Assembly (NCBI GenBank): GCA_035553475.1
Contig: DATNDQ010000035.1
Coordinates: 7,075 to 71,074 of the forward strand
DNA: 64,000 bases
Direction: 5' to 3'
Source: Gemmatimonadales bacterium
GTDB lineage: Bacteria > Gemmatimonadota > Gemmatimonadetes > Gemmatimonadales > GWC2-71-9
Below are positions 3,114 to 51,705 of this stretch, piece by piece; the stretch's first letter is position 1, and the number at the start of each line of letters is the position of its first letter. The position numbers and the translations under genes were made by a program. The notes below the pieces were generated by a model. The model saw only the letters and a program-made list of their open reading frames with translations. It was not told the DNA's origin and did no database searches.

Positions 3114-3119
3114 TGACCC

Positions 3120-9209: not shown

Positions 9210-9794
9210 ATGACCACCCGCCGCTCATTCCTCTCTATCGCACTGCTGGCCGGTTGCCTGGGCGCGGCCTCACTCCAGGGCCAGGGAGCCCAAGCGCCCA
9301 CAGGGCCGTCGGACGCCGATGTGGCCTTCATGTCCGGCATGATCGGGCACCACGCCCAGGCCGTGCTCATGGCCGGGTGGGCCGAGAGCCACGGGGCCTC
9401 CCCCACGGTTCAGACGTATTGCCGCAAGGTCGTGGTTTCGCAGCGGGATGAGATCGGCCTGATGAAGCGCTGGCTCCAGGATCACCACGAGGCCCTCCCG
9501 GACACCACCCTGATGTACGGACGGTCCATGCCCGGGATGGGGCCGATGCTGATGCCCGGCATGCTCACCGCGGCGCAGCTCGCGCAACTCGACAGTGCGC
9601 GCGGGTCCGACTGGGATCACCTGTTCCTCGAGGACATGATCCGGCATCATCAGGGCGCCATCGAAATGGTCCGGCAACTCTTCAATACGCCGGGCGGCGG
9701 CAAGGGGATCGTGTTCCAGTTTGCCACCGATGTCTCGGCCGATCAGACCGCGGAAATCACGCGGATGCGGCAGATGTTGATCACGCTTCCGTGA
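9210..9794 (+). CDS. DUF305 family lipoprotein (194 aa)
   Basis: It has a lipobox (IALLAGC), HH motifs (MIGHHAQAVLM, MIRHHQGAIEM) and a Met-rich loop (SMPGMGPMLMPGM). Its stop overlaps the GTG of the next gene. Confidence 0.85.
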   Translation: MTTRRSFLSIALLAGCLGAASLQGQGAQAPTGPSDADVAFMSGMIGHHAQAVLMAGWAESHGASPTVQTYCRKVVVSQRDEIGLMKRWLQDHHEALPDTTLMYGRSMPGMGPMLMPGMLTAAQLAQLDSARGSDWDHLFLEDMIRHHQGAIEMVRQLFNTPGGGKGIVFQFATDVSADQTAEITRMRQMLITLP

Positions 9795-28012: not shown

Positions 28013-28016
28013 CCCC

Positions 28017-30666: not shown

Positions 30667-32030
30667 CGCACGTGGCGGTGATTGGGGGGGGCATCGCCGG
30701 CCTCGCGGCTGCGCAGCGACTGGTCGAGGCGCAGGTCTCCTGCACCGTGATCGAGCGGGATCATCGGCCCGGCGGGAAGATCGTCAGCCGGTTGGTTGGG
30801 GGCTTCCTGGTGGAGGGTGGCCCCGACTGTTTCCTCTCGTCCAAGCCCGGGGCCGTCGCATTGGCGCGGTCTCTCGGGATCGACGGTCTCCTCCAGGGGA
30901 CTGACCCCGCGCACCGTGGGACGTTCGTCAAGCGTCAGGGCCGCCTCCACCCGCTTCCGGAGGGCATCACCGGACTCGTTCCGTCGCGCATCGCTCCGTT
31001 GCTTACCACCCGCCTCCTCTCTCCCGCCGGCCGGATCCGGGCGGGACTCGAGGCATTCGTGCCACGTGGCGGGGGCGGGGATGAGAGCATCGCCCAGTTC
31101 GCGTCCCGGCGGTTCGGGCTCGAAGCCTATCAGTGGGTCGTGGAGCCGCTGCTTTCGGGAGTCTACGCCGGAGATGGGGAGCGGCTCTCGCTGTCGGCGA
31201 CCTTCCCCCAACTCGCGCGCGCGGAACGCGATGCGGGAGGGGTGCTGCGTTCGACCTGGCGGAAGCGCGGTGGCCCGCCGGGAGAGCGGGGTGGATTCCT
31301 GTCGTTTCCGGACGGCGTCGAGCAGTTGGTCCGTTCGACGGTGGCCAGACTTCCGGCCCAGACCCTGCAGCTGGGCGTCGGTGTGCGGAACGTCACGATG
31401 GAGGGCGGCACCTTCCGCATCCGGTGCGACGACGGAAACACCAACGCCTTCGACCAGGTCATTCTCGCCACCCCGGCATATGTCACTGCCGAGCTCGTCG
31501 AGGATCTGAATCCGTCACTCTCCATCGAGTTGTCCCGGATCCCCTTCGTGTCCTCGGCCACGGTCACGCTGGGCTACACCGACGCACCGGCATTCGGGGG
31601 ATCGGGGTACGTGTGCCCCCGGGCGGAAGGTGGAGCCGCGGTGGCGGTGACCTGGTCGTCCAACAAGTACCGGGGACGTGCCCCGGCCGGCGGTGCCTTG
31701 GTGCGGGTTTTCCTTGGGCGAGCGGGAGACGAAGGGTGGGTCGACGAAGCGGATGAGGCGCTGATCGCTGAGGCGCGCCGCGAACTGGAGAGGGTCTGTG
31801 GGGTCGTGCAGGAGCCGGCGCTGGCGCGGGTGTTCCGTTGGTCCCGGGGGCTTCCACAGTACGTGATCGGCCATCTCGACCGAATCGAGCGGATCACGGC
31901 CCTGTTGCACGGCGTGCCGGGTCTGCATGTCGCGGGAGCGTCGTACCGGGGAGTCGGCATCCCGGATTGCATCACCTCCGGATGGGCCGCCGCCGACCAG
32001 GTCCTTCGCTCCCTGCGGGTCCCCGTCTGA
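30663..32030 (+). CDS. hemY: HemY-type protoporphyrinogen/coproporphyrinogen III oxidase (CgoX)
   Basis: 455 aa from ATG 30663 (ATGA overlap). It has the FAD fingerprint [14 protein letters not shown] and the C-terminal motif [13 protein letters not shown]. Confidence 0.88.
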
Positions 32031-33310
32031 CCCACTCTCGTTCGGCGCTCCTCTTTGAACGGGCGCAGAGACTGTTTCCGGGAGGCGTGAACTCTCCTGT
32101 CCGTGCCTTTCGCGCGGTAGGCGGGCAGCCCGTGTTTCTCGCTCGCGGTTCGGGTGCCACGGTGCAAGACGTCGACGGACGGAGCTACATCGACTACGTC
32201 CTGTCGTGGGGTCCGCTGATCCTCGGCCACGCGCATCCGTTGGTGGTGCGCGCGGTGCAGCAGGCGGCACTCGAGGGCACCAGTTTCGGCGCGCCGAACC
32301 CCCGCGAAGTCGAGCTTGGGGAGCTGATCAAGAAACGGATGCCCGCCCTCGAGCTGATGCGGTTCGTAAACTCGGGCACGGAAGCGGTGATGAGCGCGTT
32401 GCGCGTCGCGCGCGCGTTCACCGGCCGCTCCAAGATTCTCAAGTTTGAAGGCTGTTACCATGGACACGCGGACGGCCTCCTGGTGAAGGCGGGGTCCGGC
32501 GTCGCCACCTTGGCGCTTCCTGACTCGCCGGGCGTACCCAGCGCGACGGCCGCCGACACGCTGGTGGTGCCGTACAACGACCTGCCGGCGGTAGACCGGA
32601 TAATGAAGGAACATGGCAAGACCATTGCCGCGGTCATCGTCGAGCCGGTGGCGGGGAACATGGGCGTGGTTCCGCCCGGGCCCGGATTCCTCGAAGGACT
32701 TCGGGATCTCACGCGGTCGGCCGGCGCCTTGTTGATCTTCGATGAGGTGATGACCGGATTTCGCGCGCATCCGTCGGGCGTGCAGGGGATGACGGGTGTC
32801 ACGCCCGACGTCACCACGCTCGGCAAGATCATCGGCGGTGGCTTGCCCGTGGGAGCCTACGGCGGCCGCCGTGAGGTCATGGAGCTCGTAGCGCCAGCCG
32901 GTCCCGTGTATCAGGCCGGCACGCTCTCCGGAAATCCGCTGGCGATGGCCGCCGGGCTCGCGACGCTCGCTGAGCTCGGTCGCCCCGGCGTCTGGGATGC
33001 CATCGCCAAGACCACCGCGGACCTCGTCGAGGGCCTGAACCAGGCGGCGCAATCGGCCGGCGTACCCTGCGCCGTCAACCGGGTGGGCGCGATGTTCACT
33101 CTGTTCTTCACCGATCACCCGGTCCGCAGCTGGGGTGAGGCTCGGCGCTCCGATGTGGGCCGTTTCGGAGCGTTCTTCAGATCGCTCCTGCAGGACGGCG
33201 TGTACTGGGTGCCTTCGCAGTTCGAGGCCGCCTTCCTGTCCGCCGCGCACGGCCAAGGCGAAATCGACCGAACGGTGGATGCGGCTCGCCGGGCGCTGCG
33301 CGCCATCTGA
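31982..33310 (+). CDS. hemL: glutamate-1-semialdehyde 2,1-aminomutase (start uncertain: ATG 31982 or CTG 32027)
   Basis: It contains [11 protein letters not shown] and a PLP-Lys region ([17 protein letters not shown]). The only in-frame canonical start is ATG 31982, which overlaps hemY by 49 nt. A CTG at 32027 would form a CTGA junction and give a typical N-terminal length. Confidence 0.88.
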
Positions 33311-35332: not shown

Positions 35333-36526
35333 ATGCGCCCGGTCCTGGTTTTCCCGTTGTTCCTCTGTTCCGCCCTACCGGCGCAGACGCCTCGCGCGGT
35401 GTCCCGTGCGGATGCGATCGCGCTCGCGGCGGCGCACGGACCACGCGCCGCCACCGCACGTGCCGACTCGGCCGCCGCGTACGGCGACCTCGCGGCCGCG
35501 CGGGCGTTCGCGAACCCTTCGTTCTCGGCCACCTACACGAAATCGGTACCGCGGTACCACTACATCTTCGATATACCGATCGATTGGCCGTGGCTGCGCG
35601 CGCCGCGCGTCGGCGCCGCCGGAGCGGGAGCGGAGGCGGCGCGTGCACGCTTCGCCTTCGAAGTCGCGGCGGTACGTTTCGACGCCGATACGGCCTACAC
35701 AGTCGCGCTCGCGGCCCAGGCTCATGCCCGGCTGTCCCGCCGGACGGCCGGCGACGCCGACTCACTCTTGCGGGTGGCGCGTCTCAGACGGGATGCCGGG
35801 GACGCGAGCGAGATGGATACTCGGCTGGCGGAGATCAACGCGGGGGAGCTGGCCAACAGCGCGGCCGAGGACTCGCTCGCGGCCGTCGCGGCGCTGGTGA
35901 ACCTGCAACTCGTCATGGGGCTTTCCGGTGACTCGGCCGTGGGGCTGAGCGATTCTCTCCAGTTTCCCGACACGGCCGGGGACCAGGTGCCCTCGGCACC
36001 GCTGTCGGTCCTCGAGGCGCAAGCTGAGCTGACGGCGGCTGAACGGTCGCTCACGTTCGCGAAATCCGCGAATCTCCTTTCCCCGAGCTTTCAGGTGGGT
36101 GTCGAACGGGGCGACCCGACCGGGTCGGAGCCCGGCGCGCTCCCGACCTTCGGAATTGCTCTTCCCCTGCCGCTCTTCAACTGGAATGGTGGCGCGATCA
36201 CGCGCGCGCGGGCCGAGCGGGACGCGGCGCAGATCCGTCTCGATGCGACGCGGCGCGCCGCGGCCGCCGAACGAGCCCGCGCGGTTGGAGAGCGTTCGGT
36301 GGCCCTGACCCGAGCCCACCGGGATGCGGGTCTGGTGGCGAGCGCGGATTCGGTGGCCGCGATGTTCCTCAAGGCCTACGGTGAGGGAGCCGTTTCCTTG
36401 CCAGAGGTACTGGAGGCGCAGCGCAACGCGCGTGAGGCCTTGGGCCGCTACGTGGACGATCTGGCGCTGGCCAATACGGCCGTAGGACTGGTCAAACTCC
36501 TCGATGCGACCCGGGAGCATCCGTGA
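35333..36526 (+). CDS. TolC/CzcC-family outer-membrane efflux protein
   Basis: 397 aa with a signal peptide and an OEP-type two-repeat helical sequence. It is the first gene of a three-gene efflux operon. Confidence 0.8.
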   Translation: MRPVLVFPLFLCSALPAQTPRAVSRADAIALAAAHGPRAATARADSAAAYGDLAAARAFANPSFSATYTKSVPRYHYIFDIPIDWPWLRAPRVGAAGAGAEAARARFAFEVAAVRFDADTAYTVALAAQAHARLSRRTAGDADSLLRVARLRRDAGDASEMDTRLAEINAGELANSAAEDSLAAVAALVNLQLVMGLSGDSAVGLSDSLQFPDTAGDQVPSAPLSVLEAQAELTAAERSLTFAKSANLLSPSFQVGVERGDPTGSEPGALPTFGIALPLPLFNWNGGAITRARAERDAAQIRLDATRRAAAAERARAVGERSVALTRAHRDAGLVASADSVAAMFLKAYGEGAVSLPEVLEAQRNAREALGRYVDDLALANTAVGLVKLLDATREHP

Positions 36527-37548
36527 AACGTCTCGTGACACTGCTGGTCCTGATCGCGGCCTGCCACGGCGGCGGACATGAGGGGGACCAGCCGCCGGCG
36601 GCCCCCGTCGCCACCGCGACGGTCCGCCAGGGGCCTTTCACGGAAATCGTGACCGCCATCGGAACGGTTGCGCCGCGGCCAGGTCGCTATGCCGAGCTGG
36701 CCGCTCCAGCGCCGACGCGCGTGGCGCGCATTCTTGTGACGCCGGGGCAGCGCGTCGCCGTGGGTGACACGCTCGTCGTGTTCGAGCAGGCGTCCTTCGA
36801 TGCCGCGGCGCACGCCGCCGACGTGGCCCTCGCGGCTGCCCAGCATGCCGCCGACCGCGCGAACCGGCTGGTGACAGCGGGGATACTGCCCAGGAAGGAC
36901 GCCGATCAGGCCGAGCTGGACCTGGCCGCGGCCCAAACGGCGGATGTTACGGCCCGTCGCAACGCGGATCTCGCGGCGCTGAAGTCCCCCATCGCGGGTG
37001 TGGTCACCCGGGTGAACGCGGTGATGGGAGCGTCCGCTGATCCGTCGCAACCGGTCGTTGCCGTGGCCGACCCCAATGCCCTCGATCTGGTGTTCGGTCT
37101 GTCGGTGGATGCCGCGGGCCACGTACACGCAGGGGACTCGCTGTTCGCCCTCGCCGGCGAGCAGGGCACGGGGGACACGCTGGGACCTGGTCGGGTGCAG
37201 GATGTCGGGGTCGCGGTCGACTCGGTCTCGAGGACGGTCACTGCTCGTGCCCACCTCACTCGCACCACGCGCGTGCTGCGCATCGGCGAAACGGTTTTCG
37301 CCCGCATTGCCGTCAAGACGACGCCGCATGCCACGCTCGTTCCTGAGGTTGCCCTGGTCCCGACGGGGGAGGGGTACCGCGTTTTCGTCGTGGACACCGC
37401 GGGGATCGCGCATGAGCGGGATGTGACGGTGGGTGGGCGCGCGGACGGCATGGCCGAGATCACCAGCGGACTCGCAGTGGGCGAAGTGGTGGTGTCCACC
37501 GGGGCGTACGGCGTCACGGACAGCGCCCGCGTCGCGAAAAAGTCGTGA
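36523..37548 (+). CDS. RND efflux periplasmic adaptor (MFP, HlyD/CzcB-like), lipoprotein
   Basis: 341 aa with a lipobox (LLVLIAAC) and lipoyl-like and beta-barrel segments (..VAVGDTLVVFE.., ..SPIAGVVTRVNA..). A GTGA overlap is present. Confidence 0.85.
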   Translation: MKRLVTLLVLIAACHGGGHEGDQPPAAPVATATVRQGPFTEIVTAIGTVAPRPGRYAELAAPAPTRVARILVTPGQRVAVGDTLVVFEQASFDAAAHAADVALAAAQHAADRANRLVTAGILPRKDADQAELDLAAAQTADVTARRNADLAALKSPIAGVVTRVNAVMGASADPSQPVVAVADPNALDLVFGLSVDAAGHVHAGDSLFALAGEQGTGDTLGPGRVQDVGVAVDSVSRTVTARAHLTRTTRVLRIGETVFARIAVKTTPHATLVPEVALVPTGEGYRVFVVDTAGIAHERDVTVGGRADGMAEITSGLAVGEVVVSTGAYGVTDSARVAKKS

Positions 37549-40500
37549 AGCTGTTCGACGTCCTGGCGCATCAGCGCCGGCTGATCCTCTTGATCGTCGG
37601 GCTCCTGACCGCCGTCGGTGTCTGGTGCGCGCTCCGGCTTCCCTCCGCGATCTATCCCGAGCTCCAGTTCGAGCGCGTCCAGGTAGTCATCCAAGGGTCG
37701 GCCCTGGGTGCGCGACAGATGGTGTTCTCGGTCACCCGGCCGGTGGAAGAGGCGGTGAGCGTCGTCCCGGGCGTGGTCCGGGTCGATTCCCGCACCATCC
37801 GTGGCGCCCTCGAGATGTCGATCTATTTCGCCCCCCGCACCAACATGGTGAACGCGCTCTCGCTGGTTCGAGCCCGCGTCAGCCAGGTGCAGGGCGACCT
37901 GCCTCAGGGACTCGATATCCAAATCGAGCAGATGACGCCGTCCCTGTTCCCCATCCTGTCCTATACAGTAGAAGGGGGAGACCCGGCGACGCTCTACGAC
38001 ATCGCCCGCTACCAGATCAAGCCCATCTTGTCGCGAATCCCCGGCGTCGCGCGTGTGGAGGTGCAGGGCTCCGATATCCACGAGGTCGAGGTCGTCGCGG
38101 ACCCGTCCCGCCTCGCCGGCCTGGGCATGACCTACGACGACATCGCGAACGCCATTCGGAAGGCGACGACCGTCTCCGCGGTGGGCCGAGTGGCGCGGGA
38201 CTACCGGCAGTATCTCGTCGTGACGGATGTGGAGGCGCATACCCCCGAGGATATCGGGGCTGTGGTGCTGTCCAACGGCCTCCGGGTCCGGGACGTGGCG
38301 TCTGTTTCCCTGGGCACCGAAGACAAGGTCAGCATCATCGCCGGTGACGGGAAGCCCGCCGCGCAGATCAGCGTGACTCGGCAGCTGGGCGGGAACAGCA
38401 TCGCGATCGCCGACAGCGTCGCTGGCGCGTTCCGCGGACTCCAGAGTGACCTGCCTCCCGGGGTCCAGGTGAAGGCGGTCTACGATCAGGCCTCCCTGGT
38501 GCGGGACGCGGTACACGGCGTGCGGGACGCGATGCTGATCGGCGCGATCCTCGCCGTCATCGTCCTCTTCCTGTTCCTCCGGCACGGACGCATCACGGCC
38601 ATCAGCGCGACCAGCATTCCGCTCACCCTGATCATCACCGTCGCGGCCATGCGGGCGCTCGGTCAGACGTTCAATCTCATGACGCTCGGCGCCATGGCGA
38701 TCGCCATCGGCCTGGTGATCGACGACGCGGTGGTCATTACCGAGAACATCGCGCGCCATCTGGCGACCGGCGTGGAGCGGCACGTCGCGATCAGGGAGGC
38801 GGTCGCGGAGCTGGTGTGGCCCGTCACGACCTCCACCATCACCACCGTGGTGGTCTTCCTGCCGCTCGGCCTCCTCACCGGCGTGGTCGGCCAGTTCTTC
38901 GCGGCCCTGGCGACGACGCTGACCTGCGCGGTGCTCATCTCGCTCGGGCTGGCGCTCACGATCATTCCCTTGCTTGCGAATGAATTGGTCACCACGGAGG
39001 AAGCGGCACCGTCGGGCGCCGGATCGGTCCTCGACAAAGTCTCCCATGCCCTCAACCGGTTGACCGCCTGGTACGGCGACACGCTTGGCAAGGCGTTGCA
39101 CCACCCCCGCCGGGTGGTGGGCGCGCTGGTCGTACTGGCGGTCCTGGGCGTCGTCGGCTACGAGGTCACCGGCACGGGATTTCTGCCCGAAATGGACGAA
39201 GGCGCTTTTGTGCTGGACTACTTCACGCCCGGGGGAACGGCGCTGGCTGAGACGGACCGGGAGGTGCGAGTGGCGGAGGGGATCCTGGCCCGGACGCCGG
39301 AGATTACCGGCACCTCGCGCCGTACCGGAGCGGAGCTGGGATTGTTCGCGACCCTGCAGAATTCCGGAGACATCGTCGCCCGGCTGAAGCCCGCGAATGA
39401 GCGGGACCGGGACATCTTCGCGGTGATGAACGCTGAACGGGATTCGATCAGTGCCGCGGTGCCGCGACTGCACATCGAGTTCGTCCAGATCCTCTCGGAC
39501 GTCATCAATGACCTGGCCGGCGCGGCCAAGCCCGTCGAGATCAAGCTCTTCGGCGAAAACCTCGACACGCTCGAAGCGTATGCACATCGCCTCGAGCCCA
39601 AGCTGTCCGCCGTTGCCGGTCTCGAGGACTTCTACAACGGCGTGAGTGAACCTTCGGCCGAGCTGATGCTCAAGGTGCGCTCGGCGGACGCAGCCCGCGT
39701 GGGCCTGACGCCGGCGGACGTCGGTGATGGGGTGCAGGGGGCGTTGCTTGGCGTGCCGGCGGGCGAAATACACACCGAGGACCGCCCGATCGCGGTGCGG
39801 GTGCGGGCACCCGATGACGTCCGCTACGATCTGACCAGGCTTGCGAGCCTGCCGATCCTGGGAGCCCACGCGACCCGGCCCACACCGCTGGGAGCGCTCG
39901 CCGACTTCCAGCCGGTGGACTCCCGCGCCGAGCTGTTACGGGAGAATCAACAGCAGATGATCGACATCAACGCGGATGTCGATACGCGATCCCTGGGTGA
40001 CGTCATGGGGGACGTGCGCAAGATCCTGGCGTCGGAGCCGGCTCCCGCCGGAGTCCGGGTCGTGATCGGAGGCCAGTATGCGAACCAGCAGGAGGCATTC
40101 GCCGCCCTCCTGGTGGTCCTGGGTCTCGCGACGCTCTCCGTGGTGGCCGTGATGGTGGTGCAGTTCGAGTCGTTCCTCGAGCCCCTCATCGTCCTGGCGG
40201 TGGCACCGGTCTCGTTCACGGGCGGCCTCGCGGCACTGCTGGTCACCGGGACCGACCTGAATGTCTCCTCGATGATGGGATTCATACTTCTGGTGGGGCT
40301 GATCGTGAAAAACGGCATCATCCTGCTCGACTTCACGAGGCTGCGCATGCGGCGGGATGGCCTGAATCTCGAAACCGCCCTCCGGGATGCCGCGCGCGTG
40401 CGCCTTCGTCCCATTCTGATGACGACCCTCTGCACCCTCTTCGGTCTGCTTCCGCTGGCCCTGGGCCTCGGGGCGGGGAGCGAGTTGCAACGGCCATTGG

Positions 40501-40610
40501 CCCTCACCGTGATCGGGGGCCTCGCGCTTTCGACGCCGATCACGCTGTACGCCGTTCCCGCGCTGCTGGTCGCCATTCGCGGCGGGGGGGCGACGCTCTC
40601 GCGAGCCTAG
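37545..40610 (+). CDS. RND efflux permease (AcrB/CzcA/CusA superfamily)
   Basis: 1021 aa with 12-TM, two-large-loop architecture. Conserved TM4 residues are present (AIGLVIDDAVVITENI). A GTGA overlap is present. Confidence 0.92.
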   Translation: MKLFDVLAHQRRLILLIVGLLTAVGVWCALRLPSAIYPELQFERVQVVIQGSALGARQMVFSVTRPVEEAVSVVPGVVRVDSRTIRGALEMSIYFAPRTNMVNALSLVRARVSQVQGDLPQGLDIQIEQMTPSLFPILSYTVEGGDPATLYDIARYQIKPILSRIPGVARVEVQGSDIHEVEVVADPSRLAGLGMTYDDIANAIRKATTVSAVGRVARDYRQYLVVTDVEAHTPEDIGAVVLSNGLRVRDVASVSLGTEDKVSIIAGDGKPAAQISVTRQLGGNSIAIADSVAGAFRGLQSDLPPGVQVKAVYDQASLVRDAVHGVRDAMLIGAILAVIVLFLFLRHGRITAISATSIPLTLIITVAAMRALGQTFNLMTLGAMAIAIGLVIDDAVVITENIARHLATGVERHVAIREAVAELVWPVTTSTITTVVVFLPLGLLTGVVGQFFAALATTLTCAVLISLGLALTIIPLLANELVTTEEAAPSGAGSVLDKVSHALNRLTAWYGDTLGKALHHPRRVVGALVVLAVLGVVGYEVTGTGFLPEMDEGAFVLDYFTPGGTALAETDREVRVAEGILARTPEITGTSRRTGAELGLFATLQNSGDIVARLKPANERDRDIFAVMNAERDSISAAVPRLHIEFVQILSDVINDLAGAAKPVEIKLFGENLDTLEAYAHRLEPKLSAVAGLEDFYNGVSEPSAELMLKVRSADAARVGLTPADVGDGVQGALLGVPAGEIHTEDRPIAVRVRAPDDVRYDLTRLASLPILGAHATRPTPLGALADFQPVDSRAELLRENQQQMIDINADVDTRSLGDVMGDVRKILASEPAPAGVRVVIGGQYANQQEAFAALLVVLGLATLSVVAVMVVQFESFLEPLIVLAVAPVSFTGGLAALLVTGTDLNVSSMMGFILLVGLIVKNGIILLDFTRLRMRRDGLNLETALRDAARVRLRPILMTTLCTLFGLLPLALGLGAGSELQRPLALTVIGGLALSTPITLYAVPALLVAIRGGGATLSRA

Positions 40611-40670
40611 ACCTGCGCCCCGCCGTCCTCTAGGTTAGTCCGTACGACCAACTCTCTACGAGAGAGGCGA

Positions 40671-42608
40671 GTGTCTATGGTGCAACCGAAGAACGCCCAT
40701 GGATATGTCCGGTTGACGGAGCCGCTGGTTCGCGACGGAGGGACGCTGCGTCCCGCGACGTGGACCGAGGCCCTCGATCGGGCGGCCGAGGGGTTCCGGC
40801 GGAATCTGAAACCCGGACCCAACCGGCTGGGCATCTTCAGCTGTTCCAAGTCCACCAACGAGATGAATTACCTCGCCGGGAAACTGGCGCGGGTGGCCTT
40901 CGGAACGCACAACATCGACAGCTGCAACCGAACGTGACACGCTCCTAGCGTCGTCGGTCTGGCGACGGTGTTCGGTGCGGGTGGGGGAACCACCTCGTAC
41001 CAGGAGGTGGAAGAAGCCGAGGTCCTGTTCCTCTGGGGCGCGAATGCCCGGGAGAACCACCCGATCTTCTTCCATCACGTGCTCAAGGCGGTGCACCGGG
41101 GGGCTCGGCTCTATGCCGTGGACCCGCGGCGGACGACGTCCGCCCAATGGGCGGACCGCTGGCTGGGCCTCCACGTGGGCTCGGACATCGCCCTCGCCAA
41201 TGCGATGGCACGCGTCATCATTCACGCCGGTCTCGCCGACGAACAGTTCATCAAGAACGCGACCACGGGATTCGAGGAGTACCGGAAGTGCGTCGAGGCG
41301 TATCCGCTCGAGCGTGCGGAGCAGCTGACGGGCGTCCCGGCCGCGGCCATCGAAGAAGCGGCGCTGACCTATGCGCGCGCCAGACGCGCGGTCATCTGCT
41401 GGACGCTGGGGATTACCGAGCACCACAATGCGGTCGACAATGTGTTCGCGCTCATCAATCTGTCACTGCTCACCGGGCACGTGGGCCGGTACGGTTCGGG
41501 CGTGAGCCCGCTCCGCGGCCAGAACAACGTGCAGGGGGGCGGCGACATGGGTGCCATCCCCAACAAGTTCGTCGGGTTCCAGGAGATCCGGGACGCCTCG
41601 ATTCGGGGACGGTTCGAACAGGCGTGGGGTGTCACGCTCCAGCCGGATCACGGGTGGACCATCACGCAGATGTTCGAGGCCATGGACCATGGTGAGCTCA
41701 CCGGGCTCTACGTCATCGGTGAGAACCCGGCCCAGTCGGAAGCCGATCAGCACCGCACGCAACGCCTGCTCGACGGACTCGATCACCTCGTGGTGCAGGA
41801 CATCTTCCTGACCAAGACGGCGGAGATGGCCGATGTCGTGCTCCCCGCGGTCGCGACCTGGTGTGAAGGGGAAGGGACCGTTACCAACAGCGAGCGCCGG
41901 GTGCAGCGAGTGCGGCCGGCGCTGACCCCGCCGGGCGATGCCCGGGACGAGCTGTGGATCCTGGCGCAGATCGCGAAGCGCATGGGATACGATTGGGGTG
42001 AACCCACCGCACAATCGGTGTGGGAAGAAGTGAGAACGCTGGCGCCCGAGATGTTCGGGGGGATGAGCTACGAGCGCCTGGAGGCGCTGGGTGGCATCCA
42101 GTGGCCCTGCCCGGACGAGTCTCATCCGGGCTCGCTCTTCCTGCATGAACGCCTGTGGGCCGAACCGCGCGGCGGACCCGCGGCGCCATTCGCCGTGGTG
42201 GAGCACGATCCGCCGGTCGAGGCACCCGACGCCGAGTATCCGTTCGTCCTGACAACAGGACGCCGCCTCGATTCGTACAACACCGGGGTGCAGACGATGG
42301 GGTACGCCTCGCCGCTGCGCCGGCCGGAGGCGCTCGACATGTCTCCCGAGGATGCGGCGGAGATGGGGCTCGCCGAGGGAGATTCGGTGACGATCGCTTC
42401 GCGGCGCGGGAGCGTGACGGCCCCCGTGCACGTAGAACCGGGACTCCGTCCGGGATTGGTCTTCATGACGTTGCATAACCAGGATGACGTGCGGGTGAAC
42501 TTGCTCACCATCGACGCGACCGATCCACGGTCGGGAACCGCCGAGTTCAAGGCCTGCGCGGTGCGCGTGACGCCCGCCGCGACGGCGGCAGCCGTCGCGA
42601 GCCACTGA
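40671..42608 (+). CDS. fdhA: formate dehydrogenase catalytic (Mo/W-bisPGD) subunit; selenocysteine encoded by TGA 40935-40937; lacks the N-terminal Fe-S domains
   Basis: ORFs 40671-40937 and 40968-42608 are in the same frame, separated only by one TGA. The context NIDSCNRT-U-HAPSVVGL matches the FdhF-type motif CARV-U-HGPSVAGL. Downstream motifs are present (RGQNNVQGGGDMGA, VVQDIFLTKTAEMADVVLP, EFKACAVRV). The protein begins at the position that follows the MopB 4Fe-4S domain in fused enzymes. Confidence 0.85.
40938..40972 (+). promoter_or_regulatory. SECIS-like stem-loop directing Sec insertion at UGA 40935
   Basis: An 11-nt spacer (cacgctcctag) precedes the stem cgtcgtc(40949-55)/gacggtg(40964-70), which includes G-U pairs. 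The apical sequence is ggtctggc and contains GGUCUG, as I recall for the E. coli fdhF SECIS. Confidence 0.6.
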
Positions 42609-42614
42609 GGTCCA

Positions 42615-44486
42615 GTGGATCTTCATCTCCGCGATGCCACGCCGACGGAAGCAGAGCGGGCTGCCATCGATGGCGTCCTGGGCGCGCCGGCGTCCGGATG
42701 GGATGGTGGAGAGCGCGTGGCGGGCCGCGACGGTCACCTGGCCATCGGCGGGCATGAGGCCCGCGCCCGCCGCCACCTGCTGCTTCCCGCCCTGCACGCA
42801 GTTCAATCCCGAACCGGTTGGCTCTCCGAAGGGGCTCTCAACTACCTGAGCGCGCGCCTGACCGTGCCGCTGGCCGAGATCTGGGGCGTGGTGACGTTCT
42901 ACGCGCTCCTGCCGACGCATCCCCGTCCACCGCGGGTGCTCCATGTCTGCGACGACATCGCCTGCCGCATGCGGGGAGCCAACGGGATCTGCGAGCGGCT
43001 GGAGCATGACGTCGGCCAGCCCGTGACGGAGGCCGGTCATGGAGAGACTTCCGAGGCCAGGGACCCCGGCGAGCACGGCTGGTTGCGGAGTCCCTGCCTG
43101 GGATTGTGCGACCAGGCTCCGGCGGCCCTGCTCACCGTCGCGGACGAAAAGCCGATCGAGCGTCTCCTCGGGAACGTGACGCCGACCGGCGCCGTGGTCG
43201 CACTCCGTGGCGTGATCCCCGATGAGCTGCGTGCCAGGCTTCCCCAGAAGGGGACGCCCGGTCTCACCTTGCTCGCTCGGGTGGGCGTCGTAGATCCCGC
43301 CAGTCTTCGCGCGTATCAGGGTGCCGGCGGGTACCGGGCGCTGGCAAAAGCGTTCGAGCTCAAGCCCGAGGGCGTGATCAACGAGATGATCGCGTCCAAG
43401 CTCATGGGGCGCGGCGGCGCGGCGTTTCCGACCGGCCGGAAGTGGGACGCGGTGGCCAAGCAGGGGGCCCGGCCGCACTACGTGATCTGCAACGCGGACG
43501 AATCGGAGCCGGGCACGTTCAAAGACCGGGTCCTGATGGAAGAAGATCCGTTCGCGATCGTCGAGGCCGTCACGATCGCCGGGTATGCGGTGGGCGCGGC
43601 ACAGGGCTACATCTACATCCGGGGCGAGTACCCACTCGCCATTCGCCGCGTGCAAGGGGCGATCGATCAGGCACGTCAGGCGGGGCTGCTCGGTCCGTCG
43701 GTGATGGGGAAGGGGTTCGCGTTCGACGTCGAGATCAGGAAGGGCGCGGGCGCCTATATCTGCGGGGAAGAGACCGCGATCTTCAACTCCATCGAGGGGT
43801 ACCGCGGCGAGCCGCGCAACAAGCCGCCCTTCCCGGTGGCCGTGGGGTTGTTTCGCAAGCCCACACTCGTCAACAACGTCGAGACGCTGGCCAACGTCCC
43901 CGCGATCGTTCTCGAAGGCGGCGCGGCGTTCGCGAAGGTTGGGACCCCGGACTCGACCGGTCCCAAGCTCTTCTGCGTTTCCGGAGCACTCAAGAACCCC
44001 GGCGTCTATGAGGTGCCCTTCGGCACCACGTTGCACCAGCTCATGGCCCTCGCGGGCGGGTCCATGGAAGGCCGGCCCCTGCAGGCGATTCTCCTGGGCG
44101 GTGCCGCCGGGATGTTCGTCCCCGGGAACACTCCCGACATCCCCCTGACCTTCGAAGGCGCGCGTGCGGCCGGCGTCACCCTCGGCTCCGGCGTCGTGAT
44201 GGCGTTCGATGATCAGGTCGACATGAAGGACACGCTCCTGCGCATCGCCGCGTTCTTCCGTGACGAGTCGTGCGGGCAGTGCGTCCCCTGCCGGGTGGGC
44301 ACCGTGCGCCAGGAAGAGGCGCTGCACCGCCTCGTGGCGAACAAGCCGCTCGGCTCCGCGGCTCAGGAGCTCGTCTTGCTGGAGGAGATCGGGGCGGGGA
44401 TGAAGGACGCATCCATCTGTGGGCTGGGACAGACGGCTTACAGCGCGGTGGAATCGGCGGTGAAGCGCCTGAAGGTATTCCAATGA
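42615..44486 (+). CDS. NuoE-like + NuoF-like fusion (NAD(H)/FMN/Fe-S diaphorase subunit of formate dehydrogenase; FdsG-FdsB equivalent)
   Basis: 623 aa. NuoE 2Fe-2S cysteines are present (HVCDDIACRMRG ... SPCLGLCDQAPA). NuoF FMN/NADH motifs (GRGGAAFPTGRKW, ADESEPGTFKDR) and the 4Fe-4S motif (ESCGQCVPCRVG) are present. Confidence 0.88.
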   Translation: MDLHLRDATPTEAERAAIDGVLGAPASGWDGGERVAGRDGHLAIGGHEARARRHLLLPALHAVQSRTGWLSEGALNYLSARLTVPLAEIWGVVTFYALLPTHPRPPRVLHVCDDIACRMRGANGICERLEHDVGQPVTEAGHGETSEARDPGEHGWLRSPCLGLCDQAPAALLTVADEKPIERLLGNVTPTGAVVALRGVIPDELRARLPQKGTPGLTLLARVGVVDPASLRAYQGAGGYRALAKAFELKPEGVINEMIASKLMGRGGAAFPTGRKWDAVAKQGARPHYVICNADESEPGTFKDRVLMEEDPFAIVEAVTIAGYAVGAAQGYIYIRGEYPLAIRRVQGAIDQARQAGLLGPSVMGKGFAFDVEIRKGAGAYICGEETAIFNSIEGYRGEPRNKPPFPVAVGLFRKPTLVNNVETLANVPAIVLEGGAAFAKVGTPDSTGPKLFCVSGALKNPGVYEVPFGTTLHQLMALAGGSMEGRPLQAILLGGAAGMFVPGNTPDIPLTFEGARAAGVTLGSGVVMAFDDQVDMKDTLLRIAAFFRDESCGQCVPCRVGTVRQEEALHRLVANKPLGSAAQELVLLEEIGAGMKDASICGLGQTAYSAVESAVKRLKVFQ

Positions 44487-45436
44487 CCGCCACCCACGCA
44501 GGGCCCCTCATTCCGCTGGGCGGACCACGCCGCGACGTCGAGCTGACCATCGACGGGAAAGCGGTAACGGTGCCGGAAGGCACCACCATCCTCGATGCCT
44601 GCGCCCGGCTCGACCAGACCCTGCCGACGCTGTGCTACCTCGAGACCCTGCATCCGGTGAACGCATGCCGGGTGTGCGTAGTGGAGGTTGAGGGCTCGCG
44701 CGTGCTGGTCCCGGCGTGCTCGCGCGCGGTCGAGGCCGGCATGAAGGTGCGGACCAACACGACGCGCGTGAAGCACAGCCGCAAGATGGTCCTCGAGTTC
44801 CTCGCCTCGTCCGTGGATCTGTCCACCACCCCGCATGTATCGGACTGGCTCTCCGAATACGGTGCCCGGCCCGACCGGTATGGTCCTCCCGACCACCCCG
44901 GCGCAGATGGTGACCGTGACTCCCGTTCTCCGGGGCATCACGAGCCCCCGCGGAACGGTGTCGCGGCCACCGTCGCACAGCCGATGAAGGTCGACAACGA
45001 TCTCTACGTCCGCGACTACGCGAAGTGCATCCTCTGCTACAAGTGCGTCGAAGCGTGCGGCGTGGACTATCAGAACACCTTCGCGATCGCCGTCGCGGGG
45101 CGGGGCTTCGACGCGCGTATCTCGACGGAGTTCGCCGTGGAGCTGCCGGAATCAGCGTGCGTCTACTGCGGCAACTGCATCGCCGTATGCCCCACCGGTG
45201 CGCTGATGTTCAAGACCGAGCGCGATCACCGGGATGCGGGCACCTGGGACGAAAGCCGTCAGCACGTAACCGAGACCATCTGCCCCTACTGCGGCGTCGG
45301 CTGCACGCTGGAGCTCCACGTCCAGGACAACGAGATCGTCCGGGTCACGTCTCCCCTCGACCATTCGATCACCCGGGGCAACCTCTGCATCAAGGGCCGC
45401 TTCGGTTGGCGGTACGTGCAGAACCGCCGTGACTGA
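44483..45436 (+). CDS. NuoG-like Fe-S module = detached N-terminal part of the formate dehydrogenase alpha subunit (2Fe-2S, His/Cys 4Fe-4S, 2x ferredoxin 4Fe-4S, MopB 4Fe-4S)
   Basis: 317 aa from ATG 44483 (ATGA overlap). Motifs include LTIDGKAVTVPEGTTILDAC..LCYLETLHPVNACRVCVVEV, CILCYKCVEACG, CVYCGNCIAVCPTGA and CPYCGVGCTLELHV..GNLCIKGRFGWRYV. The protein stops exactly where the Mo domain would begin. Confidence 0.85.
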   Translation: MTATHAGPLIPLGGPRRDVELTIDGKAVTVPEGTTILDACARLDQTLPTLCYLETLHPVNACRVCVVEVEGSRVLVPACSRAVEAGMKVRTNTTRVKHSRKMVLEFLASSVDLSTTPHVSDWLSEYGARPDRYGPPDHPGADGDRDSRSPGHHEPPRNGVAATVAQPMKVDNDLYVRDYAKCILCYKCVEACGVDYQNTFAIAVAGRGFDARISTEFAVELPESACVYCGNCIAVCPTGALMFKTERDHRDAGTWDESRQHVTETICPYCGVGCTLELHVQDNEIVRVTSPLDHSITRGNLCIKGRFGWRYVQNRRD

Positions 45437-46289
45437 CCGCATCCCGCCGGCCCTTTCCGCGGAGCACCCGCTGTTCGGCCTCGGCTACACGGAGCCGGTG
45501 CGAGAGCGGGAGTACACCAGGCTCGAGGGCGGGCAGCGGAGTGAGCAAGCCCCGGTCGCGGAAGAAGTCCCCATTGCCTTCATCTATAACGGCCGCCCCC
45601 ATGTGGTCATGATGGGGACTCCCGCGGACCTCGAAGACTTCGCCGTCGGGTTCTCGCTGACGGAGGAGATCGTCCCACAGGTGTCCGACCTGTCCCGCAT
45701 CGAGGTCGTTCGTCACGCGCAGGGGATCGAGTTGCAGCTCACGATCCCCGAGGATGCGGGGAAGCGCCTCGAGTCCCGCGGCCGGCAACTGGTGGGGCAG
45801 ACGGGGTGCGGCCTGTGCGGCGTCGAGACGGTCGCCGAAGCCCTGCGACCGCCGCGCGAGCTACCCGTAGGGCGGCCGCCCGTCCCGCGGCACGCGCTCT
45901 GGCGTGCCGAGGAGATCCTGCCTGAGCTGCAGCAGTGGAATCGGGAGACCGGGGCGCTGCACGCGGCGGCGTGGGTGAGCGATGCGGGAGCCCCCGAAGT
46001 GGTGCGCGAGGATGTCGGCCGGCACAACGCGCTGGACAAAGTGATCGGTGCGCTGGCGCGCAGCGGCCGCCGTGCCGATGAGGGATTCCTGCTGGTGACG
46101 AGCCGGGCGAGTTACGAAATGGTCCAGAAGGCGACGGTAGCGGGGGCGAGGATGCTGGCGGCGGTGTCCCGGCCGACGGGACTGGCGGTTCGCCTGGCGG
46201 AGGCGAGCGGCCTGACGCTGGTAGCACTGCTTCGGGGCCGGACGGCCAACGTGTACGCCCACCCCGAGGGACTTACCGGCCCGGATTAG
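45429..46289 (+). CDS. fdhD: formate dehydrogenase accessory sulfurtransferase FdhD
   Basis: 286 aa with the catalytic loop GQTGCGLCGVE and the motif DVGRHNALDKVIG. It starts with GTG and overlaps the upstream gene by 8 nt. Confidence 0.9.
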   Translation: MTDRIPPALSAEHPLFGLGYTEPVREREYTRLEGGQRSEQAPVAEEVPIAFIYNGRPHVVMMGTPADLEDFAVGFSLTEEIVPQVSDLSRIEVVRHAQGIELQLTIPEDAGKRLESRGRQLVGQTGCGLCGVETVAEALRPPRELPVGRPPVPRHALWRAEEILPELQQWNRETGALHAAAWVSDAGAPEVVREDVGRHNALDKVIGALARSGRRADEGFLLVTSRASYEMVQKATVAGARMLAAVSRPTGLAVRLAEASGLTLVALLRGRTANVYAHPEGLTGPD

Positions 46290-46815
46290 TCCCCGTCAGC
46301 TGCTTCATGCGTTCCTTCCGGTCCTCCTCCGCCTGCTTCCGCTGATCGCTGCGCCAATCCTTGTAATCCTTGAAGTGCGGCTTTGTGAAGATCTTCTTGA
46401 CCCGGTCGTCGAAATGGTCGTCTTCCTTGGCCAGCCGGTCGCCAAGATGCCGCAACATGGGGAAGTAGGCGCGAGCGGACTCGCGGTCTCCCGACTGCCA
46501 GAGCTGGTCGATGTGCTGACGCACGGCGGTCGCCGTGTCGCGCAAGGCCTTGGTCGCCACCATGAACGAATCGTAGGCCACCCGGTAGGCTTTCCCTTCG
46601 GCGGTATCCAGCTCGAACCGGTCGATCACGAAGTCCGGGATGGCGGGTCCCGCCAGATCTTCGGGCGAGGGAAGGGGATCCATGATGGTCGTCGGACGGG
46701 GCGTGTCTCCCATTCCCGACCGCCCGGTCCCATTCCCCACGCCACCCGTGCCGTACGGAGACTGGGCGACTGCCGGGGCCGAGAGCAACAGCATGAACGC
46801 GATGATCCGCCGCAT
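46273..46815 (-). CDS. secreted helical hypothetical protein
   Basis: 180 aa with a signal peptide (MRRIIAFMLLLSAPAVA-QS), a GAGGAGG Shine-Dalgarno sequence and a TAGATT -10-like box upstream. The C-terminal half is charged and helical. It is divergent from the ECF sigma operon. Its 3' end overlaps fdhD by 17 nt. Confidence 0.6.
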   Translation of the reverse strand: MRRIIAFMLLLSAPAVAQSPYGTGGVGNGTGRSGMGDTPRPTTIMDPLPSPEDLAGPAIPDFVIDRFELDTAEGKAYRVAYDSFMVATKALRDTATAVRQHIDQLWQSGDRESARAYFPMLRHLGDRLAKEDDHFDDRVKKIFTKPHFKDYKDWRSDQRKQAEEDRKERMKQLTGTNPGR

Positions 46816-46861
46816 GGAATCCTCCTCTCGCTAATCTACACCGCTCACCCCTGGAGGGTGG

Positions 46862-46889
46862 TCAACCGCAGGGTGCGGGTCCCCGTAAG
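46862..46889 (+). promoter_or_regulatory. ECF-type promoter candidate (TCAACC-N16-CGTAAG) upstream of the ECF sigma gene
   Basis: It has an AAC core at -35 and a CGT core at -10 with a 16-nt spacer, about 30 nt upstream of ATG 46920. This is the classic autoregulatory layout. Confidence 0.4.
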
Positions 46890-46919
46890 TGTGGTGTGAC
46901 CGCCAGGGCCCGAGGGGTG

Positions 46920-47480
46920 ATGCCGGATCCGAGTCCGGAAGATGAAAGGGCGATCGTTGCGCGGGCTCGGACTGGAGACCGCGAAGCGTTCGGCTCGCTC
47001 GTGGACCTCTATCAGGACGCCGTACGCCGGGTGACCAGGGCGGTCCTGCACGACGCCGAAGAGGCGGACGATGCGGCGCAGGACGCGTTCCTGTCGGCCC
47101 TGACCAAGCTCGCGCAGTATGACCCGGGACGGCCCTTTCGGCCCTGGCTCATGCGCATCGCGGCGAACGTGGCCATCGACCGGAAGCGCCGCCGGCAAGT
47201 GCGTCGGGGCCAACCCCTGGCGCCCGAAGCGCAGTCGCACGAACCGTCTCCGCAGCTGCACGCGGAACGGACCGCCCTCCGGGAGAAGCTCGAGGAAGCG
47301 ATGAGGCATTTGCCGGAGCGGTACCGCGTGGCGCTGGTTCTGTACGACGTAGAAGGCTATTCGCATCCGGAGATCGCCGAGATTCTCGGCATCCCGGTCG
47401 GCACGGTGCGGTCCGCGGTATTTCATGCCCGGCGGACGCTACGTCCCCTGTTGGAGGGGTGGAGGGAGGGGGGTTCATGA
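46920..47480 (+). CDS. ECF sigma-70 family factor
   Basis: ATG 46920 follows GAGGGG; the ORF track's GTG 46896 is also possible. Region 2 (DREAFGSLVDLYQDAVRRVTRAVLHDAEEADDAAQDAFL) and region 4 (LPERYRVALVLYDVEGYSHPEIAEILGIPVGTVRSAVFHARR) are present. Confidence 0.88.
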   Translation: MPDPSPEDERAIVARARTGDREAFGSLVDLYQDAVRRVTRAVLHDAEEADDAAQDAFLSALTKLAQYDPGRPFRPWLMRIAANVAIDRKRRRQVRRGQPLAPEAQSHEPSPQLHAERTALREKLEEAMRHLPERYRVALVLYDVEGYSHPEIAEILGIPVGTVRSAVFHARRTLRPLLEGWREGGS

Positions 47481-47839
47481 TTCTCGAGTTCGATTCGCAC
47501 GATGCTCCGACAGATCCCAAGGTCAAGGCTGCGCTCGAGTGGATGCTGCCGGTGACCGGGCGAGAGGAATTCCGCGCCCAGGTGATTGCCCGGGCCCAGG
47601 ACCTGCGAGTGCGTCCCCTCAGCACCCTGGATCGCTGGGCGCGCCCGGCGCTCGCGGCCGCCGCCACGATCGCGCTGGCGGCGTGGGTGGCCGGCGGTCT
47701 GCTCGAGCCCGCGTCCACGGACACCCTCTCGCTGGACGGCGCCATGGTGAGCTCGGCCACCGGGAGCCCGCCCTCGGCCTTCATTGCCTCCCCGCGCCCA
47801 CCTGACGCCGACGCCATCGCCGGGCTGGTGACGCCATGA
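47477..47839 (+). CDS. putative anti-sigma factor (single TM)
   Basis: 120 aa with an ATGA overlap with the sigma gene. A central TM segment is present (PALAAAATIALAAWVAGGLL). The assignment is positional only. Confidence 0.5.
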   Translation: MILEFDSHDAPTDPKVKAALEWMLPVTGREEFRAQVIARAQDLRVRPLSTLDRWARPALAAAATIALAAWVAGGLLEPASTDTLSLDGAMVSSATGSPPSAFIASPRPPDADAIAGLVTP

Positions 47840-50529: not shown

Positions 50530-51138
50530 TTACTTCGCCGCGGCGAACCGCCGCGCGACCTCAGGCCAATTCACGACGTTCCACCACGCCCCGATGTAAT
50601 CGGGCCGGCGGTTCTGGTATTTCAGGTAGTAAGCGTGCTCCCACACGTCGAGGCCCAGGATCGGCGTCTTGCCGTCCATCACCGGGCTGTCCTGATTCGC
50701 GCTGCTCGAGATCTCGACCTTCCCGCCGGCCGCGGTGAGCCAGGCCCACCCGCTGCCGAAGCGCGTCGTGCCGGCCGCCGCGAACGCTTCCTTGAACTTC
50801 GCGAAGTCTCCGAACGCCTTCTTGATGGCGTCCGCGAGTGCGCCGGTGGGCTCGCCGCCGGCCTTCGGGGCCATCACCGTCCAGAACAGCGAGTGATTGT
50901 GGTGCCCGCCCGCGTTGTTGCGGACCGCGGTGCGGATATCGTCAGGAACCGAGGCAATGCCCTTCAGCAGGTCGTCGAGGCTCTTGTTGTGGAGCTCGGG
51001 GTGCTTGTCGAGGGCGGCGTTCAGATTGTTGACGTACGCCTGATGATGCTTGCCGTGGTGGATCTGCATGGTCTGCGCGTCGATATGGGGTTCGAGCGCG
51101 GCGAAGTCGTAGGGAAGGGCGGGCAACGTGTGGGGCAT
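50530..51138 (-). CDS. sodA: Mn-type superoxide dismutase
   Basis: 202 aa from ATG 51138, with GGAG upstream. Motifs include [41 protein letters not shown], the Mn-type ANQDSP and [18 protein letters not shown]. The 375-aa ORF-track version was trimmed. Confidence 0.92.
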
Positions 51139-51237
51139 ACGAGTCGTCACTCCAAAGTGGGGTCGAGCGGATCGGGTTGACTGAGAAAGGTAACACCCCC
51201 CGGTTGCCCCCGGTTCCGGGACCCACGAGTTTCCAGC

Positions 51238-51705
51238 ATGGCCGACGCGAAGCCCAGGATTGGAGCACCCGCACCCGAGTTTACCCTGTCGTCCACCGCC
51301 GGACGCGACGTTTCTCTCGGCGAGTTCCGGGGGAAGAAAAACGTGCTGCTCGCGTTTTTCCCCTTGGCGTTCACCAGCACCTGCACGGCCGAGATGTGCG
51401 CGTTCACCGATGACTTCGAAAAGTTCGCGTCGGCCGGCACGGTGGTACTTCCCATCAGCATCGATTCCGTGCCGACGCTCAAGGAATACAAGGCGAAGTA
51501 CGCGATGAAGGTGGACCTGCTCTCGGATTTCAGACGAGAGGTGTCCCGCCGCTACGATGTGCTCATCGAGGAGAAGTTCTTTTCCAAGCGGGCCTACTTC
51601 CTGATCGATCGCGCGGGCGTCCTCCGCTGGACGCACACGGAAGCCGAGCTGGGACACCGACGGGAGGACACCGAGCTCCTGGCGCAGATCGCCGCTCTGG
51701 GCTGA
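51238..51705 (+). CDS. peroxiredoxin, AhpE-like subfamily
   Basis: 155 aa with the sequence [28 protein letters not shown] containing the peroxidatic Cys. It is divergent from sodA. Confidence 0.85.

Follow-up and report, generated by a model that had tools for sequence, protein, structure and literature searches.

A probable formate dehydrogenase with its alpha subunit split after the FS0 iron–sulfur domain and a permuted gene order in a Gemmatimonadales bacterium

Can the alpha subunit of a formate dehydrogenase (FDH) be made as two polypeptides, encoded in reversed order with the gene of the diaphorase subunit between them? This question is raised by a locus on contig DATNDQ010000035.1 of a Gemmatimonadales bacterium (GenBank assembly GCA_035553475.1), of which a 64-kb stretch, called the window below, was analysed; all positions are given in window coordinates. 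Four tightly packed frames occupy positions 40677–46289 of the plus strand: CAT, the catalytic subunit (40677–42608, with an alternative GTG start at 40671); EF, a NuoE–NuoF fusion representing the beta (diaphorase) subunit (42615–44486); FES, an Fe-S subunit (44483–45436); and FdhD (45429–46289). A gap of 6 nt separates CAT from EF, EF and FES overlap in an ATGA, and the overlap between FES and FdhD is 8 nt long. This four-gene content, along with the coordinates, end sequences and junctions, had been described in an earlier note made from the DNA letters, and the sequence and the Pfam labels agree with it. Homology and comparison with related loci make it likely that the operon encodes a cytoplasmic, selenocysteine (Sec)-containing FDH with a Mo- or W-bis-pyranopterin guanine dinucleotide (bisPGD) cofactor, which would pass electrons to NAD+ and belong to the MeFDH1 (alpha-beta) type, but with the alpha subunit made as two polypeptides.

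CAT (643 codons including the Sec codon) consists of the Mo/W-bisPGD domains II–IV of a MopB formate dehydrogenase, with Pfam matches to PF00384 (residues 12–435, E 2e-68) and PF01568 (523–628, E 6e-28); the Pfam scan gave no PF04879 match, that is, no FS0 domain, in this protein, and it has no N-terminal Cys motif. Its active-site residues are U87-H88 and the arginine of ...SPLRGQNNVQG..., and it thus carries the U/C-H ... R-G-Q residue set of class I (PMC8808070). The likely start is the ATG at 40677, where homologue alignments begin and which is also called in related genomes. CAT lacks a signal peptide, which indicates a cytoplasmic enzyme. The earlier note had given 40671–42608 as a catalytic open reading frame (ORF) and was right about frame and domain, but the frame is not uninterrupted: the ORF list splits it into 88 and 546 aa at an in-frame TGA, a Sec codon that had been overlooked together with its selenocysteine insertion sequence (SECIS).

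FES, a protein of 317 aa, is the counterpart of the first third of a fused alpha subunit and contains PF13510 (Fer2_4), two ferredoxin-type Fer4 motifs and, at residues 261–314, PF04879, which places the FS0 (MopB [4Fe-4S]) domain at 45263–45424 of the plus strand. The cluster ligands are C51/C62/C65/C79 for the [2Fe-2S] cluster, C182/C185/C188/C192 and C226/C229/C232/C236 for the ferredoxin-type [4Fe-4S] clusters, and C267/C270/C274/C302, followed by K304, for the FS0 [4Fe-4S] cluster; all 16 cysteines are invariant in the homologue alignment. The C-terminus reads ...CPYCGVGCTLELHV...GNLCIKGRFGWRYVQNRRD, directly followed by the stop codon. All of the 120 best database homologues of FES have the same domains and a length of 301–391 aa, and the best database matches came from Gemmatimonadales genomes. 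A library of representatives at 50% identity consisted mostly of metagenomic fragments and told little about architecture; in contrast to FES, it included N-terminal fragments of fused Sec-type alpha subunits ending in ...IDNCARL.

The two proteins match complementary parts of the same known enzymes. FES aligns end to end with residues 15–304 of Rhodobacter capsulatus FdsA (6tg9_A, E 3e-48) and with 9wxb_B 24–306, while CAT aligns with 6tg9_A 307–933 (E 6e-126), 9wxb_B 308–935, the MeFDH1 alpha subunit 7e5z_A 372–990 (E 2.5e-140) and FdhH 1aa6_A 61–693. Likewise, positions 1–50 of the TIGR01591 profile fall on FES residues 265–314 and positions 52–672 on CAT residues 11–631. Only 3 residues of FES and about 10 residues at the beginning of CAT extend beyond this homology. 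Judged by these alignments, FES and CAT are the adjoining, non-overlapping halves of one alpha subunit, and their complementarity places the cut directly after the FS0 [4Fe-4S] domain. The earlier note's proposal of two halves of one FdsA/FdhF-type polypeptide, contiguous and cut at a domain boundary, is thus borne out against FdsA and FdhF/FdhH, and FES belongs to the FDH family rather than to another enzyme family, an alternative that had been left standing.

Related loci were sought with one genome per GTDB species; 80 loci kept out of 491 GTDB matches, and three metagenome contigs reached via a homologue (L001–L003), gave a set of 83. In 70 of them there was a FES homologue whose aligned part was at least 53% identical, and 67 remained after dropping L064, L066 and L070, which hold FES fragments beside fdhD without EF or CAT. 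The FES frame stops 0–23 residues after FS0 in 66 of these 67 loci. The exception is L032 (Nonomuraea sp. MG754425, 9001–10800), in which no stop follows FS0 and the frame runs through another 319 codons, in a register different from that of fdhD downstream; either the stop codon has been lost here or the sequence contains an error. Every one of the 67 loci that has an adjacent catalytic gene keeps the order CAT-EF-FES, in agreement with the reversed order around the diaphorase gene noted before, and CAT lies directly upstream of EF in about 50 of the approximately 52 loci with sufficient upstream sequence. Inserts of 0.9–2.4 kb were observed in some Chloroflexota and Acidobacteriota, between CAT and EF in L007, L008 and L071 and between EF and FES in L051.

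The 67 loci span at least nine phyla, including Gemmatimonadota, Actinomycetota, Acidobacteriota, Chloroflexota, Planctomycetota (Gemmata), Verrucomicrobiota, Armatimonadota, Eremiobacterota and a metagenome-assembled genome labelled 'delta proteobacterium', and their hosts are mostly aerobic soil lineages. Among the Actinomycetota are Streptomyces scabiei (ATCC 49173, L040), S. parvulus (JCM 4068, L033), Amycolatopsis azurea (DSM 43854, L016), A. eburnea, Nonomuraea, Acidimicrobiia, Gaiellaceae and Solirubrobacteraceae; isolate genomes (Streptomyces, Amycolatopsis) and complete Bryobacterales chromosomes (Acidobacteriota) are represented. One locus labelled 'Candidatus Micrarchaeaceae archaeon' (L013, DATLRQ010000161.1) holds a bacterial split operon with 68% identity to the window, most likely reflecting a binning error rather than an archaeal member. 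In separate neighbour-joining trees of EF, CAT and FES the split loci are monophyletic, with no fused sequence among them, and the intermixing of phyla inside this clade points to horizontal spread.

More distant relatives (L073–L077 and L080–L083, 36–38% identity) have EF followed by a truly fused alpha subunit of about 900–946 codons. The lineage nearest to the split clade in the EF tree (L068, L072, L078 and L079) has an alpha subunit divided one domain earlier and in canonical order: EF, then an Fe-S protein of 233–254 aa, then an FdhF-like protein that keeps FS0. The Fe-S gene and the FdhF-like gene are located at 8989–9690 and 9700–11856 in L068, 8932–9696 and 9693–11855 in L072, and 2773–3525 and 3612–5702 in L078, and from 6022–6759 onward in L079. 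Two of these loci, L068 and L072, had appeared to encode fused alpha subunits, but the tblastn alignment ran through the stop codon and inspection of the ORFs revealed the other split. Two neighbouring lineages thus divide the alpha subunit at different domain boundaries. The H-x3-C-x2-C-x5-C motif of the His-Cys3 cluster (A5 of R. capsulatus FDH, RcFDH) is absent from the split clade and present in the more distant fused relatives; its loss was considered as a hallmark of the split clade and rejected, as the nearest relatives and MeFDH1 also lack it (PMC10869683).

Selection on the operon was estimated against L084 (GCA_037025225.1), a syntenic genome with 93% identity. The dN/dS ratios of 0.083 for CAT, 0.089 for EF, 0.033 for FES and 0.059 for FdhD, next to 0.051 for the neighbouring AcrB gene used as a control, show that all four operon genes are under strong purifying selection. 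These values and the conserved gene order speak for a functional operon rather than decay, as had been argued from the coupled junctions.

The distribution of the genes bears on a different interpretation, in which EF-FES would be a free-standing NAD(H)-linked module with an exposed [4Fe-4S] docking domain, and CAT one of several exchangeable or loosely bound partners that may serve other redox partners as well. In L021 (7046–9819) and L025 (3666–6424), EF-FES occurs without CAT within 7 kb and 3.6 kb upstream, respectively, so CAT, EF and FES are not always linked, and loss or unlinking of the catalytic gene is evidently possible. The neighbours in these two loci are unrelated, namely an Ig-like repeat protein, a protein associated with the type IX secretion system (T9SS) and DUF2238. 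The inserts between operon genes point in the same direction, as does the presence of FS0 on the catalytic protein in the neighbouring lineage, which suggests that domain boundaries are evolutionarily flexible. However, nearly all loci with sufficient upstream sequence keep CAT directly upstream of EF, the trees of CAT, EF and FES recover the same clade, the window genes are 6 nt apart or overlapping, and the 64-kb window holds no second MopB gene. We therefore regard a free-standing module as improbable, although it fares better than the other alternatives to a split, NAD+-reducing FDH.

The EF protein (623 aa) combines a NuoE-like [2Fe-2S] domain with a NuoF-like domain for FMN, NAD(H) and a [4Fe-4S] cluster: its Pfam domains are PF01257 2Fe-2S_thioredx (51–173), PF01512 Complex1_51K (261–429), PF10531 SLBB and PF10589 NADH_4Fe-4S (540–618), the NCBIfam NuoF and NuoE models match, and its PDB matches include FdsB and the MeFDH1 beta subunit 7e5z_B. 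The last gene of the operon product set, FdhD, matches PF02634 and TIGR00129 (179.9 bits against a cut-off of 140.9) and is predicted to act as a sulfurtransferase and as an insertion chaperone of bis-MGD (bis-molybdopterin guanine dinucleotide) for the FDH; in many related loci fdhD adjoins the operon on either strand.

By cofactor set and fused beta subunit, the closest characterised relative is MeFDH1, the tungsten FDH1 (Fdh1A/Fdh1B) of Methylorubrum (Methylobacterium) extorquens AM1 (PDB 7E5Z, 7VW6), and not the FdsGBACD-type operon that the earlier note had chosen for reference. The MeFDH1 beta subunit unites FdsB and FdsG in one chain (PMC10869683), and the NuoE–NuoF fusion, which had been presented as unusual, is thus already known. 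Both enzymes have the same alpha set of one [2Fe-2S] cluster, three [4Fe-4S] clusters and bis-MGD, and neither has the A5 cluster. FdsD is likewise missing from both; the two ORFs scanned beside the window operon (46375–46896, plus strand, and 46273–46815, minus strand) match no Pfam family, although no search was aimed at PF11390 itself. This common cofactor inventory and the fused beta subunit place the window enzyme with the FDH1 type rather than the FdsABGD type. The MeFDH1 alpha subunit, however, is a single polypeptide in a heterodimer. Here two genes encode it, with the break falling after A1 (FS0) and before the pterin domains, and the genes follow the permuted order CAT-beta-FES; this cut and this order are what is new. 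The metal ligand is Cys in MeFDH1 and Sec here, and the metal, tungsten in MeFDH1, would be Mo or W.

The Mo-dependent FdsABGD/FdsGBACD enzymes of Rhodobacter capsulatus and Cupriavidus necator (PDB 6TG9/6TGA) resemble the window operon in their module plan and in having an FdhD/FdsC-type chaperone alongside. They differ in that FdsG and FdsB are separate, whereas the E and F parts are fused here, and in that FdsA is one polypeptide with a Cys ligand and a fifth cluster, A5 (His-Cys3 [4Fe-4S]), which is absent here.

The diaphorase subunit is also the source of a second alternative, according to which the enzyme would be a flavin-based bifurcating, ferredoxin- or hydrogenase-coupled complex, or a CO2 reductase, instead of a simple NAD+-reducing FDH. 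In the PDB, the NuoF part best matches not FdsB but HydB of bifurcating hydrogenases and NfnB, likewise from bifurcating enzymes (E 7e-117 versus 1e-90 for FdsB). However, EF ends at residue 623, 5 residues past the NADH_4Fe-4S domain (618), with no C-terminal ferredoxin extension, and the lack of the additional C-terminal 2x[4Fe-4S] ferredoxin domain(s) of HydB-type subunits speaks against a bifurcating enzyme of the HydB type. Neither the operon nor its flanks contain genes for a hydrogenase or a ferredoxin, the cofactor set is that of MeFDH1, which is non-bifurcating (PMC10869683), and the hosts come mostly from aerobic soil. A bifurcating or CO2-reducing complex is thus very unlikely, and a simple NAD+-reducing FDH of the MeFDH1 type remains the preferred reading.

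The in-frame TGA of CAT (40935–40937, plus strand) lies in SCNRT-U-HAPSVVGL, at the Sec position that provides the metal ligand in FdhF-type enzymes. The same alignment column is occupied by TGA in 39 loci of the split clade and by TGC or TGT in Streptomyces, Amycolatopsis, Nonomuraea and Sphaerisporangium. A putative SECIS hairpin at 40950–40966 of the same strand was recognised by minimum free energy folding and by covariation across the 39 TGA sequences. It consists of a 6-bp helix (40950–40955 with 40961–40966) and a GGUCU loop (40956–40960). Across the 39 sequences all 234 of 234 pair cells of the helix are paired, one pair being swapped on both sides (C-G to G-C) and three varying one-sidedly by wobble, and the loop is invariant, synonymous sites included. 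The Cys-type homologues have GGC or GGG followed by CTG instead, and their helix is gone. The same GGUCUG occurs in E. coli fdhF at positions 22–27, at the same distance from the UGA (sequence verified against 5,419 E. coli genomes). From the TGA onward, 55 nt (40935–40989) are identical to those of L084 despite a dS of 0.25, which is consistent with constraint beyond the protein code and with SECIS function. Scans of the window with Rfam and for tRNA genes gave no match to a SECIS family and no tRNA-Sec, so the SECIS is established by sequence comparison, and the support for Sec decoding in this genome comes from comparison only. Most likely, UGA codon 87 is recoded via an fdhF-type SECIS hairpin.

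If the TGA at 40935 were a real stop, the locus would yield an 86-aa peptide and a truncated protein of 546 aa, i.e., an inactive or degenerating gene. Gene callers do split the frame there, and neither Sec machinery nor tRNA-Sec is present in the window. A genuine stop is nevertheless highly improbable, since the TGA occupies the exact active-site column in 39 loci with Cys as the sole alternative, the SECIS helix and the GGUCU loop are conserved with a compensatory change and lost in the Cys forms, and both parts lie in one frame with a dN/dS of 0.083 across its whole length. Recoding of codon 87 as Sec accounts for the same observations. Finally, a window of 64 kb leaves room for a fused copy elsewhere in the genome, but the idea that the locus arose by misassembly, or is decaying as a duplicate of such an intact gene, has next to no probability, since more than 50 assemblies made independently of one another, among them complete long-read chromosomes and genomes of Streptomyces and Amycolatopsis isolates, show the same order, the junctions are coupled, no compositional break is seen and the dN/dS values are 0.03–0.09. 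Decay and misassembly are excluded, the rearrangement at 42608–44486 that the earlier note had kept in view among them.

Several points nevertheless weigh against the reading of the operon as a split, Sec-containing, NAD+-reducing FDH. Apart from the two loci without a nearby CAT and the HydB-like matches of the NuoF part, these are the absence of selA, selB, selC and selD from the 64-kb window; the score of CAT against TIGR01591 (655.4 bits, cut-off 666.25), which stays just under the cut-off since CAT has no counterpart of profile positions 1–51; the lack of any paper on the clade in a full-text literature search; and the CAT–FES complex and the assembly of the three proteins, which we infer only from homology to MeFDH1, RcFDH and FdhH.

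Homology to the same three enzymes also suggests that NAD+ would be the acceptor, as implied by the designation 'NAD-type' in the earlier note, that formate oxidation would be the direction of catalysis, and what the electron path may look like. CAT would oxidise formate at a Sec-ligated Mo or W centre, FdhD having sulfurated the cofactor and inserted it. Electrons would then cross the subunit interface to the FS0 [4Fe-4S] cluster in the C-terminal domain of FES, pass within FES through both ferredoxin-type [4Fe-4S] clusters and the [2Fe-2S] cluster, and move on to the [4Fe-4S] cluster and FMN of EF, where NAD+ would be reduced. In MeFDH1, cryo-EM has resolved a relay from W-bisMGD through A1, A2, A3, A4 and B1 to FMN, with the NuoE-type [2Fe-2S] cluster lying off the path (PMC10869683, PMC13397495).

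The window enzyme shares with E. coli FdhH (FdhF) the U-H ... R residues, an FS0 domain with Lys beside its last Cys, and the GGUCUG SECIS element. In the FdhH structure, this lysine bridges the cluster and the pterin. In FdhH, however, FS0 (residues 1–60) is on the same chain, and the enzyme feeds a hydrogenase complex, not NAD+. In enzymes of the Hyl/Fdh and hydrogen-dependent CO2 reductase (HDCR) types, FS0 stays on the FdhF-like catalytic subunit, and the NuoG-like Fe-S subunit is a separate protein. Together with the L068 lineage, they resemble the window operon in the three-gene layout and in carrying the Fe-S chain on a protein apart from the catalytic one, but they are cut one domain earlier, with FS0 attached to the pterin domains, and follow the canonical order. 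The MopB catalytic unit is also divided between two polypeptides in formylmethanofuran dehydrogenase (FwdB/FwdD); there, what is split off is domain IV at the C-terminus (the PF01568 part) rather than the N-terminal FS0, and the enzyme and its reaction are different. To our knowledge, no characterised MopB enzyme carries FS0 on a polypeptide other than that of the pterin domains, and the full-text search yielded no description of an alpha subunit split after FS0.

At its simplest, the arrangement would have arisen from an ancestral beta-alpha operon that was duplicated in tandem and whose two copies were then truncated in complementary ways, turning EF-[FES.CAT]-EF-[FES.CAT] into CAT-EF-FES; no intermediate was found among the loci examined. 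Duplication with complementary truncation is the usual route to circular permutation, here at the level of an operon. A bolder reading, which we put forward tentatively and consider rather unlikely, is that this is the first natural MopB enzyme with FS0 in trans and that its split is adaptive: a CAT with Sec and pterin but free of Fe-S clusters would be matured by FdhD on its own and would dock on a pre-assembled, NAD(H)-linked Fe-S module, making the catalytic unit exchangeable or regulatable and perhaps helping aerobic soil bacteria to tolerate oxygen. Exchangeability of the catalytic unit is hinted at by the loci with an unlinked CAT.

The operon is embedded in ordinary chromosomal genes that are syntenic in L084; the G+C content of the window is about 67%, with no compositional break across the operon. 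A scan of 40300–47000 for promoters and terminators gave no promoter-like site and terminator-like sites only at chance level. Upstream lies a resistance-nodulation-division (RND) efflux system consisting of an outer membrane efflux protein (OEP), a membrane fusion protein (MFP) and AcrB (35333–40610), and beyond it a two-component system and a heme biosynthesis cluster (24026–33310, plus strand) with genes for glutamyl-tRNA reductase, porphobilinogen deaminase, aminolevulinic acid (ALA) dehydratase, uroporphyrinogen decarboxylase, a protoporphyrinogen-oxidase-like flavoprotein and a class-III aminotransferase (HemL-like). On the downstream side, the minus strand carries a 180-aa gene without known family (46273–46815), after which come genes for an extracytoplasmic function (ECF) sigma factor, an epimerase and a Zn-dehydrogenase and, further downstream, those for superoxide dismutase (SOD), a peroxiredoxin, an RCC1-repeat protein and an ABC transporter. 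In the related loci compared, no flanking gene is kept beside the operon in other phyla, and the conserved unit is therefore CAT-EF-FES, often with FdhD.

The two overlapping ORFs downstream of fdhD, 46273–46815 (minus strand) and 46375–46899 (plus strand), match no Pfam family; the former has a coding-like G+C content at third codon positions (0.83) and is the ORF called in related genomes. The ECF sigma factor gene (46896–47480) and a small ORF after it are absent from L084, so that the otherwise syntenic genomes differ by an indel of about 1.2 kb close to the downstream end of the operon (window 46896–47839 versus L084 11333–11633). At the SOD locus (50530–51657, minus strand) the longest ORF has 375 aa, with Fe/Mn superoxide dismutase domains at residues 176–370; a related genome calls a 202-aa protein, and the window ORF probably owes its long N-terminus only to the choice of the first start codon.

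The split also affects how such enzymes are recorded. Gene calling cuts the single alpha subunit into pieces of 86, 546 and 317 aa, and the FES piece is named '2Fe-2S iron-sulfur cluster-binding protein' or 'YjgC' in databases. With the alpha subunit in pieces and a CAT score just short of the TIGR01591 cut-off, the clade will be missed or misfiled by surveys in which an N-terminal Fe-S extension (as in PMC8808070) or an intact FS0 domain is a requirement. Its members occur in Gemmatimonadota, Acidobacteriota, Actinomycetota, Chloroflexota, Planctomycetota and Verrucomicrobiota, phyla that are dominant in aerobic soils, where formate oxidation is of interest. The Cys-type versions in cultivable Streptomyces and Amycolatopsis make the proposed enzyme directly testable.

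Metal-dependent FDHs are intensively studied as catalysts of CO2 reduction. A natural, widely conserved enzyme in which FS0 belongs to a protein other than the catalytic one would demonstrate that a non-covalent interface can be tolerated in the first electron-transfer step, and it would also offer a ready-made design of a catalytic cassette plus a diaphorase module. For the evolution of the family, the locus provides a clean example of circular permutation at the operon level, next to a neighbouring lineage in which the same subunit is cut at another domain boundary.

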